NCBI GenBank assembly: GCA_019058315.1
Contig: JAHPZH010000003.1
Coordinates: 716,451 to 780,450, forward strand
DNA: 64,000 bases
Direction: 5' to 3'
Origin: Candidatus Helarchaeota archaeon
GTDB taxonomy: Archaea; Asgardarchaeota; Lokiarchaeia; Helarchaeales; RDOG01
The notes under the pieces are model-generated. The model worked only from the letters and a program-made list of their open reading frames with translations, had not been told where the DNA came from and did no database searches. Below are positions 27,378 to 38,506 of the stretch, piece by piece (positions within the stretch are counted from its first letter, which is position 1; each line of letters opens with the position of its first letter). Both the position numbers and the translations under genes were made by a program.

Positions 27378-27824
27378 ATGAGTGATGACAACACATTGCC
27401 GACCTCAAGAATCCCACCTCTTGATAAAATTTTTTCTTCTAAGGGTAGGATAAGTATATTATTCACCCTCTTAGAAGCGTTAGAACTCAATATAACCGAA
27501 ATAGTAAGGAGAACCCGCTTAAACCATGCAACTGCGGTAAAACATTTGGAGAAATTAGCTGCTTATAAGGTGGTTATAGAAAAGGTATACGGAGTGGGTG
27601 GGAGTATTCGAATTTTTCGGTTAAATGTGGAAAATTCCTTTATAAAATTATTGCGATTTGTGTATCAAATCTTCAAAAAAAAGGGACTTCTGAGTGAAGA
27701 TGACATGGATAGAGTAATGCAGTTTAATATTTTCACGGAGAACCTCGGAAAAGGGGCTAATACTGATAAAGACCTGAGACATTTGATTGATCATTGGAAA
27801 GTGACGTATGGGAATTCTTCATAA
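27378..27824 (+). CDS. ArsR-like winged-HTH protein
   Basis: FSSKGRISIL..ELNITEIVRRTRLNH...HLEKL. Confidence 0.8.
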   Translation: MSDDNTLPTSRIPPLDKIFSSKGRISILFTLLEALELNITEIVRRTRLNHATAVKHLEKLAAYKVVIEKVYGVGGSIRIFRLNVENSFIKLLRFVYQIFKKKGLLSEDDMDRVMQFNIFTENLGKGANTDKDLRHLIDHWKVTYGNSS

Positions 27825-27869
27825 TCAATTACTTTATCCTCTCTTTTTTTCCTAAAAAATTCTCTTCAT

Positions 27870-28523
27870 TTATTCTTTATCGACTTTTTCTACTCTACTT
27901 TCTAAAAAAAATAATATTCCAGTTTTCATCATGGCAGCTGTTAAAGGTAATGCTGCAAGGATCCACCATAGGGAATCGATCATTGAAGGTATTTTCAAAT
28001 AATCGATAATTTTAACAATAAGGAAACTCGGCACACAAAGAACAGACCAAAAATAATAATTCATATAAGCTTTTAAAAAAAAGGGAGCAAATACCAGATT
28101 AATACAGCTAAAAGAGTAAATTAAAAAACCAGAAATTAGACCCAACTTTTGATAGTGTAAGATATTATTTTGTTTAATAAAATTAATTCCAAATAATAAA
28201 AAAAAGAAAGCTAATGAGATATATTCAAAATATTGCAGTCTTAATTGCTCAAATAATTCTGTTGGAACAGAAATAACACGTGGTCTTATAAAATTATAAA
28301 AGAGAGTATAAAAACCTAGATATAATGAAAAGAAAAAAATAAACAGAGAAAATTTTGTTTTATCTGATTTATATGATTCAATGCATGTAAATCCCACTAA
28401 AATATAGCTTCCACAAAATAAATAAGGTAAGATTACATGATCGAGACTAAAAAAGAGCCTTAAAATTTGAAGAACAGAATACATAAGTGCACCTATTCCT
28501 CCTAATATGTATAATTGTTTCAA
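27870..28523 (-). CDS. Multi-pass membrane protein
   Basis: ~6-7 hydrophobic segments. Confidence 0.6.
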   Translation of the reverse strand: MKQLYILGGIGALMYSVLQILRLFFSLDHVILPYLFCGSYILVGFTCIESYKSDKTKFSLFIFFFSLYLGFYTLFYNFIRPRVISVPTELFEQLRLQYFEYISLAFFFLLFGINFIKQNNILHYQKLGLISGFLIYSFSCINLVFAPFFLKAYMNYYFWSVLCVPSFLIVKIIDYLKIPSMIDSLWWILAALPLTAAMMKTGILFFLESRVEKVDKE

Positions 28524-28695
28524 AAGAATCCCTTTTAATCTTATAATAAAAGAACTTGATTAGTTTCTAATATTTAAGAATTCCTACTTTTTGGTAGAAA
28601 TTTCCTTAAAGATAGTTGCTTGAAATTAATTACGATTTTGTAAGTTCCATAGAAATAAATTGCCTTCATTCAGTAATATTAATAGCTAAGAACAT

Positions 28696-37500: not shown

Positions 37501-38203
37501 TATCTTGAAAAGAGTCAAAGATAATTTCTATACGATGAAAGAAGTTGGAGAGTTATTAAACGAAGAAATTAATAGAATTCTCCCAAGTAAAGAAATTGAG
37601 ACCTATTTTGGAGTCTTTAATGACTCATGGAACAAGAGTCAGGAGTTTTGGAGTTATTATATTAAAAAAAATAATCTTACTAGAGAAGGAATAGAAATTA
37701 AATATATGAAAACTATTTTAAAAAATTTGAAAAATGGGAAACTTAAAAGAAATTCTGTAATTTTTTTAATTGATGATGTAATTGGGACTGGAACTCAATT
37801 TTTGAAATTGTATAGTAAGCTTTTCAATAAGGAAATTGAGAAAAAAATACATGAGAATAATATAAAGATATATCTTGTTTCAGTTTTTGGATCGTATGAA
37901 TCAAGGAAAAAAATCTCTAATTCAACAATAATAGGTATAGATCAAATCAGATATTCAAGGGTGATTAGGGATCAAGATAAAGCCTTTTCATTAGATGAGT
38001 GGCATAATAGAGTAGAATTACGAAATTTCCAAAATTACCTAAAAAAACTCGACCCAGAAGATTGGAGCGGCTGGAAGCCTGAGGATGGAGAAAATGGTCC
38101 AGAATTTTTATTAGTTTTCGATTGGAATACTCCAAATAGTACTATAAGCTGTATATGGAAGAATAGCGAAAATTGGAATGCATTATTTCCAAGATCTCAT
38201 TGA
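34592..38203 (+). CDS. Large helical-repeat protein with C-terminal PRTase (PRTase-CE-like) domain
   Basis: LIDDVIGTGTQ PRPP-binding loop; NTPNST...W..LFPR terminus. Confidence 0.75.
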   Translation: MKKEQNNLKNTISFYGYSQLLQNYNGFIKNLIIEGNWAKLINILKDSPFIFSNFSDLIINTLRNKKYEPIEDNKIFHITYVFLLHLLKSKAISIKENDENLFFEFLKECLAEINFNDQHLDLFIQVFGNFIIQKDFKSVLKNQNALNKLVIIWSNHLINHFPKLVEIKQFSLAYSLIKSNPVIVKTYPSLSLEVIKQSAYQFSETKKIRMTLEQHNPDLVDQFEKIRDTKKQEFCKNLSKCEKFNSHFEWFKIHNNSNYFSANTDLFSDSEIIKIIKKLVSLNIPLNYQDSVNCGWINWILLEIVWKDKGYNLKNYIEELINLQYYQVVTSYFNKYPQEINNHSMDILSKIRSNDLLELIENYFQFFNIENPEKLFEIIIQNEDIGNAFSKLVRKFQDKKDKFIELIKSHIDKFDLTKSYEENFDIYRIVDVLVSDAWRPLPKPEFPPTYIEEKLTQYLSNVKNADFFNTSSSLSLTRNFHLFTPEFQKRIVELSSKMHRFSFFIALAKNNLRSFMKLFDDIINLEPKDEVDLRMYIYILKLYITNAKKQDIINKIVDRLQKLENNYEKAQLLSYLGNKTQSLQILGELLEKEEYFLQLLFIYADYILEYIRVNIEGLNRIDIEEHIENIMSLKNEYHKHNLRRDRSIKFNFKIEFQIGYLKFLLGQSFFSESDFNEAYKQFKESEEIFYELKNVKPLPEEEKEELEMYFQVVRNFKLLTKQIPSDRAVDIEAINLNLKKKISMIEKKFKVENLKITRFLKNLKHFQIDSENNMKLVIFERPATFCPLPKRIKISKLCLIQNELEGVPDIVYQWDSHNNSIFPYSEIFIDNIWKTYQLTIEYQEKIDPLDFNIEFKKSKIIKDEKEPIKGSKDKLIINFDIIAKEEFEAIKKIEIKIQESHLCEVQSILILPVIYKSKEYHEDKKIEHQILKEVSERIKIYRQKNYEISDYMLYLEQFKNESLRKCMVKHILKRVKDNFYTMKEVGELLNEEINRILPSKEIETYFGVFNDSWNKSQEFWSYYIKKNNLTREGIEIKYMKTILKNLKNGKLKRNSVIFLIDDVIGTGTQFLKLYSKLFNKEIEKKIHENNIKIYLVSVFGSYESRKKISNSTIIGIDQIRYSRVIRDQDKAFSLDEWHNRVELRNFQNYLKKLDPEDWSGWKPEDGENGPEFLLVFDWNTPNSTISCIWKNSENWNALFPRSH

Positions 38204-38343
38204 ATTTTCAATGAATAATTTATTCTAATTCCAAGAAAAATAAAGGATTCGATGGAGTGAGTAATATTTACAAATCAAATTCGTGAGACTATCATTCCTA
38301 AAATTGGGTGATGTAAATTAAAAAAAGTAAATTGTTTAAATCT

Positions 38344-38506
38344 CAACTTCAAGTTACGCAAATACTAGATAATTATTCAATTTTGTGATTATTATTCCTC
38401 TAATTCGAATTTTCTAAAAAATAATGTTAGTTGGTTATTTAACAAACCTAATTCTAGATTTGATGGATTATTTCAATTAGCTAGTGAATTAAAACTGATA
38501 AATTAA
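38344..38506 (+). pseudogene. Displaced, diverged 3' end of the AEP gene (cf. 32665-32826)
   Basis: FCDYYSSNSNFLKNNVSWLF...GLFQLASELKLIN* versus FCDYYSCQSHFLKNNVEKLF...GLFKLASELRVGS*. Confidence 0.85.

Follow-up and report, generated by a model that had tools for sequence, protein, structure and literature searches.

The window, i.e. the whole analysed stretch of 64,000 nucleotides from a Candidatus Helarchaeota archaeon, covers positions 716451-780450 of contig C11 in a source genome of 5.8 Mb and 12 contigs (C1-C12; C-numbers refer to this genome, G000, and other G-numbers to comparison genomes). From ~5701 to ~45500 it is occupied by an element that carries TnpB, a helicase-Cas1 fusion, defence-like cargo and an RPA/RadA pair. 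Loci with TnpB and Asgard Cas1 have been catalogued as a probable transposon (PMC10691335). Sisters or remnants of the element were found in the same genome at the C11 end, the C2 start, the C2 end (internally deleted), the C11 start, the C10 end/C7 start and on C1. The C10/C7 remnant consists of two contig ends joined by inference, with a TPR gene running off both. The sisters are modular mosaics, in which short anchors are kept in the same order and the cargo between the anchors differs. The present analysis concerns two slots of the element, at a winged helix-turn-helix (wHTH) gene and at an AEP-like primase gene, where cargo is followed by a diverged copy of the gene's 3' end. Short-read run X1, which is probably derived from the source sample, was used as a check on the assembly and not as an independent sample. 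Runs X2 and X3 contained almost nothing of the window stretch.

Gene-end copies at the wHTH and AEP slots

The features of the wHTH slot are as follows (window coordinates).

27378-27824, plus strand: wHTH gene, 148 amino acids (aa)
27723-27859, plus strand: left anchor, resident copy, comprising the last 34 codons of the wHTH gene and its 3' flank
27870-28523, minus strand: cargo A, membrane protein, no Pfam family
28696-29205, minus strand: cargo B, zinc-ribbon protein
29264-29333, minus strand: segment P, duplicate of the right anchor, ending at an illegitimate junction with the orphan tail
29338-29476, plus strand: orphan wHTH tail, frame and stop conserved, start codon absent
29508-30335, minus strand: cargo C, Ig-domain (Big_7) surface protein
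30351-30424, minus strand: P', resident right anchor, continuous with the AEP upstream region

The order of the slot is thus wHTH, cargo A, cargo B, P, orphan tail, cargo C, P' and the AEP upstream region. The resident 3' end (27723-27859) and the orphan tail (29338-29476) were 84.9% identical at the nucleotide (nt) level over 139 bp (E = 1e-37). Beyond the wHTH tail, a second repeat was detected between 29264-29322 and 30351-30409 (85%). As both anchors, the tail and P, are duplicated, the repeated unit is the whole slot, tail-cargo-P, with a new junction at which the right anchor's end meets an internal position of the left anchor. P contains a purine run followed by a TATA-like box (a BRE/TATA-like motif) that faces the minus-strand cargo, and we infer from this motif a putative promoter role. 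A profile search of the genome gave six copies of P, two in the window and four in the C10/C7 remnant, all of them in this one slot.

The C10/C7 remnant has no intact wHTH gene. Its junctions are of three types: in one, P runs into the final ~20 nt of wHTH; in another, P and ~30 bp more lead into cargo B with no tail; in the third, P meets the final ~100 nt. The right breakpoints of the slot lie within ~35 bp of the P end, the left breakpoints are not clustered, and short matches (AGTG, AGAGT) are present at two of the junctions. The remnant also carries a copy of cargo B (C10:197225-197734), which is 99.4-99.8% identical to that of the window, with 1 difference in ~506 positions. The P regions of the window and C10 differ by 8 substitutions and 2 indels in 125 bp. 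In the orphan tail, 0 of 49 proximal and 9 of 58 distal positions differ, and the distal part adjoins different cargo. Cargo B and the proximal tail together thus hold 1 difference in ~556 positions against 9 in the distal 58 bp (Fisher p = 3e-9). This mosaic structure indicates that the orphan tail served as a crossover anchor.

Residues 1-105 of the wHTH protein fall into a family of ~100-aa wHTH proteins that is widespread in archaea. For the C-terminal ~45 aa, no homologue was found outside the source genome, and for this reason the "intact" wHTH gene may itself be an older junction product. A wHTH scan of metagenomes gave only distant ~100-aa relatives, mostly chromosomal and beside a ~400-aa gene. 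An exact 11-mer, GATAGAGTAAT, is located at 27708-27718 (wHTH, just before the duplicated tail) and at 30434-30444 (AEP upstream region, just after P'). Separate translation of the orphan tail as a peptide was rejected, as the junction offers no start codon and the tail is preceded by an in-frame stop. The X1 unitigs contained the wHTH gene with its 3' end and, separately, cargo C together with the orphan tail from 29353 onward (its distal part), with 0 differences and at single-copy depth. The link 29214-29353 was spanned by no listed short-read contig. An assembly artefact is unlikely for the wHTH repeat, since its copies are on separate unitigs, each of single-copy depth.

The AEP slot follows directly and contains four features.

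30764-32826, plus strand: AEP-like primase gene in two frames (30764-31681 and 31651-32826), assigned by motifs and weak Pfam matches
32935-34203, minus strand: cargo D, weak Swt1-like HEPN match, 24% GC
34592-38203, plus strand: cargo E, PRTase-CE domain protein, 26% GC
38270-38506, plus strand: orphan AEP tail, distant allele (47% aa identity), decayed with stops

The segments 32690-32812 and 38370-38492 were 72% identical at the nt level over 123 bp (E = 4e-12). At the protein level, the orphan tail matches residues 320-389 of the second AEP open reading frame (ORF; ~70 codons, from ~38270) with 47% identity and internal stops. One 13-kb X1 contig runs from the AEP gene through the orphan tail with 0 differences and at single-copy depth; an assembly artefact was therefore rejected for this repeat. 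The start of the tail differs by site, being residue 320 in the window and residue 335 at C11:10433 in the C11-start sister, where no AEP gene lies upstream. The ratios of non-synonymous to synonymous divergence (dN/dS) of the AEP tails were 0.22 and 0.27. An orphan AEP head was found on C7.

The AEP frame is broken by a one-base frameshift in motif II (SGxxGxH; ~31640), which is present in the short-read contig too; relatives are single ORFs of ~780 aa. The frameshift is probably a real inactivation. At 31627-31665, the gene is one base short within the motif SGxKGIH. A class-wide AEP search gave only ~30% relatives; their element is of a different type, and the loci retrieved for them hold no duplicate of the AEP tail. 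These distant relatives (L022-L031; G054, G059, G068, G091, G092, G022) stand in a conserved four-gene module of ~240, 780, 220 and 65 aa, unlike the element. In G068:C28, the 3' half of AEP alone remains, behind a 2018-aa gene.

The first-pass annotation had described both sites as core genes that stay intact and are followed by cargo and a diverged tail copy, with no dedicated integrase nearby. The tail copies were borne out by the alignments and agree with the short-read contigs. The claim on integrases also holds: tyrosine recombinase (PF00589) matches in the whole genome were only two, on C5 and C7 and none near the slots, serine resolvase (PF00239) had no match in the genome, and the Pfam scans of ORFs in the interval gave no transposase above the cut-off. 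The AEP gene is, however, not intact but split. Neither gene is core, since the C2 sister lacks both wHTH and AEP; the C11-start sister has AEP only as a tail. The duplication is not confined to 3' ends either: the P repeat had been overlooked, copy 2 of a microgene in the element is full length, and orphan heads are common. Excised or empty forms of the slots were not seen in the short-read contigs, which is weak evidence, as contigs cannot show absence. No convincing terminal inverted repeats were found at the slots, only AT-rich imperfect inverted repeats.

Microgene slot, chromosomal genes and related genomes

The third related site of the element is a microgene array.

18472-18642, plus strand: 53-aa microgene, copy 1, intact
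19037-19207, plus strand: microgene copy 2, full length, 95% identical to copy 1
20977-22175, plus strand: 5'-truncated microgene with its downstream gene, the displaced recipient segment, 96% identical to C11:1039-2239

The truncation of copy 3 of the microgene falls at codon 14 and coincides with a short TATTAAC match. In the C11-start sister (C11:1039-2239) the microgene is intact, which corresponds to the pre-insertion state, and the microgene slot is the best before-and-after case. A P-loop gene at 23211 is present as a tail only in C2 and as a head only in C10. Three different genes at 19767-19892, 20756-20881 and 22047-22172, one of them encoding an LRR-PCI protein, share an in-frame zinc-ribbon tail (74-84% nt).

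To cover the genome, all ORFs of at least 80 aa were compared with intergenic DNA, and same-strand fragments with at least one ORF between the fragment and the intact gene were scored. The screen gave 13 rows with a tail downstream (11 loci) and 7 rows with a head upstream (5 loci, one shared), ~15 loci in all. The reverse geometry was found with one tail, beside an assembly gap, and no heads. Counted by locus, the head/tail polarity was 16/17 (p ~3e-4). Only two loci are inside the element and most are outside it. Six clean chromosomal cases contain unrelated cargo between repeats of 104-295 bp with 74-92% identity, and no element homology was detected within ~10 kb of them. The chromosomal anchors include polyamine synthase, radical SAM, ferredoxin, AMP-binding ligase and RsmB/F methyltransferase genes. 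The remaining loci, about half of the cases, are diverged tandem duplications (74-89% nt) with a middle gene paralogous to a neighbour. A chromosomal array of diverged two-gene units (76-89% nt) at C7:238270-243713 carries orphan heads of a downstream P-loop kinase gene.

Genome-wide, orphan tails (36) and heads (30) were of near-equal frequency. The pooled proportions of synonymous and non-synonymous differences (pS, pN) in the orphan fragments were 0.30 and 0.094, with a dN/dS of 0.27. The differences are mainly synonymous, and this ratio indicates that most of the divergence arose while the fragments belonged to working genes. The junctions show matches of 4-7 bp at most (microhomology), and no common motif was found across eight junction contexts.

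Three complete Lokiarchaeia genomes were sampled over 0.8 Mb each. The orphan-end pattern was detected once in G015, at least once in G020 and at least three times in G012, where rows at 119-137 kb and 163-175 kb were left out as CRISPR-like repeat arrays. A case in G020 is an alanine-dehydrogenase-like gene with a 2174-aa surface cargo. The Cas1 domain of the element had no match in these genomes, using one query and with the genomes 91-93% complete by markers; CRISPR-type Cas1 was not searched. A close sister of the element was not found outside the source genome: viral and genome scans gave nothing, a longer-protein search had no match, and exact-protein look-ups gave no match or only the probable source sample.

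Two further features give the context of the slots.

7498-13941, plus strand: helicase-Cas1 fusion of the host element, 2147 aa
43741-45494, minus strand: RPA-like gene and a RadA paralogue without the catalytic Glu and the L2 motif

An acyl-CoA-synthetase-like gene fragment (5436-5729) stops where the sister-element homology starts (~5701) and marks the element's left end. The defence-like cargo at 17393-43234 comprises HEPN (17393, 32935), Shedu SduA_C (24304), Schlafen AlbA_2 (25759), PRTase-CE (34592) and PNP-NACHT (38801). A non-coding segment of ~130 bp at 16685-16967 is common to five other loci (C1, C3, C5, C10, C11) and is followed by AT-rich 9-bp tandem repeats. Non-coding anchors at 27152-27306 and 15536-15625 are common to C2, C9, C12 and C1, with a different order in C9. 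At C2:383459-384600, the TnpB side of an internally deleted derivative of the element runs straight into the final ~225 codons of the Cas1 fusion, which makes an orphan tail by deletion. The final 55 bp of contig C4 (2.5 kb) overlap the starts of both C6 and C11.

Mechanisms considered for the orphan ends

The orphan ends are interpreted, with a probability of roughly two in three, as scars left when diverged versions of a locus undergo one homologous crossover and one illegitimate join, either by homology-facilitated illegitimate recombination (HFIR) or by integration of a circle. A known one-sided process, and not a new integron-like or Cas1-driven system, is most likely because the same scars, gene starts included, occur at ordinary chromosomal genes of the source and related genomes. 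DNA arriving from a related strain or a sister element would pair with the resident copy on one side and undergo a homologous crossover, and its other end would be joined illegitimately within the anchor gene already present. The new allele would then lie in front with its cargo, and the resident gene end and the old cargo would be pushed behind; an anchor at the opposite side would leave orphan heads. Alternatively, a tail-cargo-P circle could integrate by a single crossover with an identical product, which is here indistinguishable from the linear route. An existing junction of P and tail would then act as a second slot, whose content could be exchanged by ordinary double crossovers. Sister elements would be frequent donors in a process that operates genome-wide, probably with host recombination enzymes. 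This scheme explains the tails, the heads, the orphans without an intact gene, the variable junctions and the synonymous bias. We infer the order of events, the linear or circular form of the donor and the enzymes involved.

The observations correspond to HFIR in several respects. The one-sided anchor is from a diverged functional allele, as seen from the dN/dS values (pooled and of the AEP tails) and the mosaic wHTH tail. The junction varies and has at most microhomology, with three junctions in one slot and two AEP tail starts, and a dedicated recombinase is absent at the site. Recombination between sister elements, proposed by the first-pass annotation, is supported by the mosaic orphan tail relative to C10 and by the pre-insertion state of the microgene. 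Orphan tails without an intact gene, orphan heads and shifted junctions are all present in sister remnants.

Several points weigh against one-sided recombination. No donor-recipient strain pair was found for the wHTH or AEP sites, and the crossovers are not placeable. Any tandem duplication with an in-gene breakpoint necessarily produces the head/tail polarity, so that HFIR is not singled out, and the low dN/dS equally fits an old functional duplicate that was truncated later. By itself, the wHTH tail (dN/dS 0.47) offers too few changes. All three wHTH-slot junctions are at most ~35 bp from the P end; random joining explains this clustering of right breakpoints only via selection or a minimum-homology effect, and it is the single unexplained detail.

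In-situ tandem duplication by replication slippage or template switching, followed by divergence and partial deletion or replacement of one copy, would make a foreign allele unnecessary. The diverged tandem duplications that form about half of the genome-wide cases, with a neighbour's paralogue in the middle, are consistent with it, and the median dN/dS of Asgard tandem duplicates, 0.367 (PMC13247210), is close to the value of 0.27 obtained here. However, in the six chromosomal cases and at both sites of the window the cargo is unrelated and no more than a short gene end is duplicated, the wHTH tail is a patchwork relative to the sister yet the adjacent cargo B is 99.8% identical, and the truncated microgene segment is 96% identical to the intact sister. 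In-situ duplication is considered unlikely as the origin of the orphan ends.

Displacement of a gene end is the textbook footprint of integrative elements that restore the 3' end of their target gene. Small elements of this kind could have integrated site-specifically, leaving attL and attR, with the integrase lost or acting in trans and the att core represented by P or the tail start. The three junctions at the P end and the short AGAGT/AGTG match between P and the wHTH tail are in favour of such integration. It is nevertheless rated as quite improbable: the left breakpoints differ among junctions, eight junctions have no shared motif, terminal inverted repeats are not convincing, the genome has two tyrosine recombinases only and no resolvase, and the excised or empty form was not seen in contigs, the latter being weak evidence.

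It is just as improbable that the wHTH-AEP slot is an integrase-free, promoter-bearing cassette system, in which the Cas1 fusion, TnpB or AEP (with an origin beside P) makes DNA ends to the right of P and tail-cargo-P units are excised and stacked on purpose. Deliberate ends just right of P would explain the junction clustering at the P end.

The first-pass annotation had favoured element-encoded machinery, the helicase-Cas1 fusion or RadA/RPA, as the driver of an integron-like accretion within the element. The element encodes RPA, a RadA-like protein and the Cas1 fusion, and its sisters are modular mosaics with conserved anchor order. The scored events amount to 2 in 40 kb of the element versus ~2.5 per Mb elsewhere (Poisson p = 0.005, biased because the locus was picked for the pattern). 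The element is a probable recombination hot spot, since multi-copy sisters supply homeologous donors. The element RadA (44439-45494) aligns to RadA/DMC1 (E ~1e-15), but DTG replaces DTE and it lacks the NQ...GG..LGH stretch (L2 motif) that two chromosomal RadA-like genes keep. The RadA copy of the C2 sister has the same changes. Strand exchange by the element RadA is doubtful on motif grounds, and it is an unlikely catalyst because the catalytic Glu and the NQ...GG..LGH motif are missing. Cas1 integration yields short or repeat-length identical duplications, not diverged ones of 100-300 bp. Terminal inverted repeats with a short identical target duplication, or identical repeats, were not found here; the duplications are 100-300 bp long and 72-92% identical, and nothing links the Cas1 fusion to the internal junctions. 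With the pattern occurring far from elements, and in three genomes where a single query with the element's Cas1 domain gave no match, a drive by element-encoded machinery is the least credible of the explanations.

Relation to known systems and meaning

The closest parallel is found in the effector-immunity arrays of the type VI secretion system (T6SS) of Vibrio cholerae and in Rhs loci, where displaced 3' ends were attributed to HFIR (as summarised in PMC2884548) and the likeness to integrons was noted by the authors (Kirchberger et al. 2017, PMC5361080). There, as here, an upstream homologous anchor is used, the new module is placed in front and the old 3' end is pushed back, no integrase is involved, and the integron-resembling arrays are later exchanged by normal recombination. 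In contrast, the present host is archaeal, a regulator, a primase and housekeeping genes serve as anchors, gene heads are orphaned too, and the orphans are without apparent function. As far as PMC5361080 and PMC2884548 report, HFIR has been experimentally shown only in competent bacteria.

In insertions with long target duplication (Furuta et al. 2010, PMC2853133), genes are similarly flanked by direct repeats that are long and variable, and other mobile elements are absent. Their cargo is restriction-modification genes and their listed repeats are ~93-99% identical, whereas the repeats determined here are 72-92% identical with a synonymous bias, which points to two alleles. The PeSL cassettes of T4-type phages (Arbiol et al. 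2010, PMC2839356) and the minimal mobile elements of Neisseria (PMC3787668) show the same swapping of cargo by homologous recombination between repeated promoter-bearing anchors or conserved flanking genes. Compared with PeSL, the putative promoter P is present at six places of one slot only, with no terminator stem-loop seen and no mini-circles in the contigs.

Integrons share with the present slots that cargo arrays grow at a slot and older content is displaced. The accretion without a dedicated integrase agrees with the first-pass annotation, but a fixed site does not, as the junctions vary and have no common motif; there is no IntI and no fixed attI, and no attC hairpins were seen (an attC covariance-model search was not run). 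By the features tested, the slots are neither an integron nor a Cas1 integration product. Asgard aCas1-TnpB loci (Cas1H-Asgard; Altae-Tran et al. 2023, PMC10691335) resemble the host element, which likewise has TnpB beside a helicase-Cas1 fusion, but this likeness concerns the context only and the internal junctions have no link to Cas1.

The mechanism most probably corresponds to a known type of scar and not to a new system. The sister copies in one genome keep the states before and after insertion and three different junctions of one slot, and in this way an Asgard archaeon illustrates the process cleanly in nature. Scars of this type also lie next to many diverged tandem gene copies in Lokiarchaeia. 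They prompt the question, not answered by the present data, of whether part of the "eukaryote-like gene duplication" of Asgard archaea (PMC13247210) may be the additive integration of relatives' alleles.

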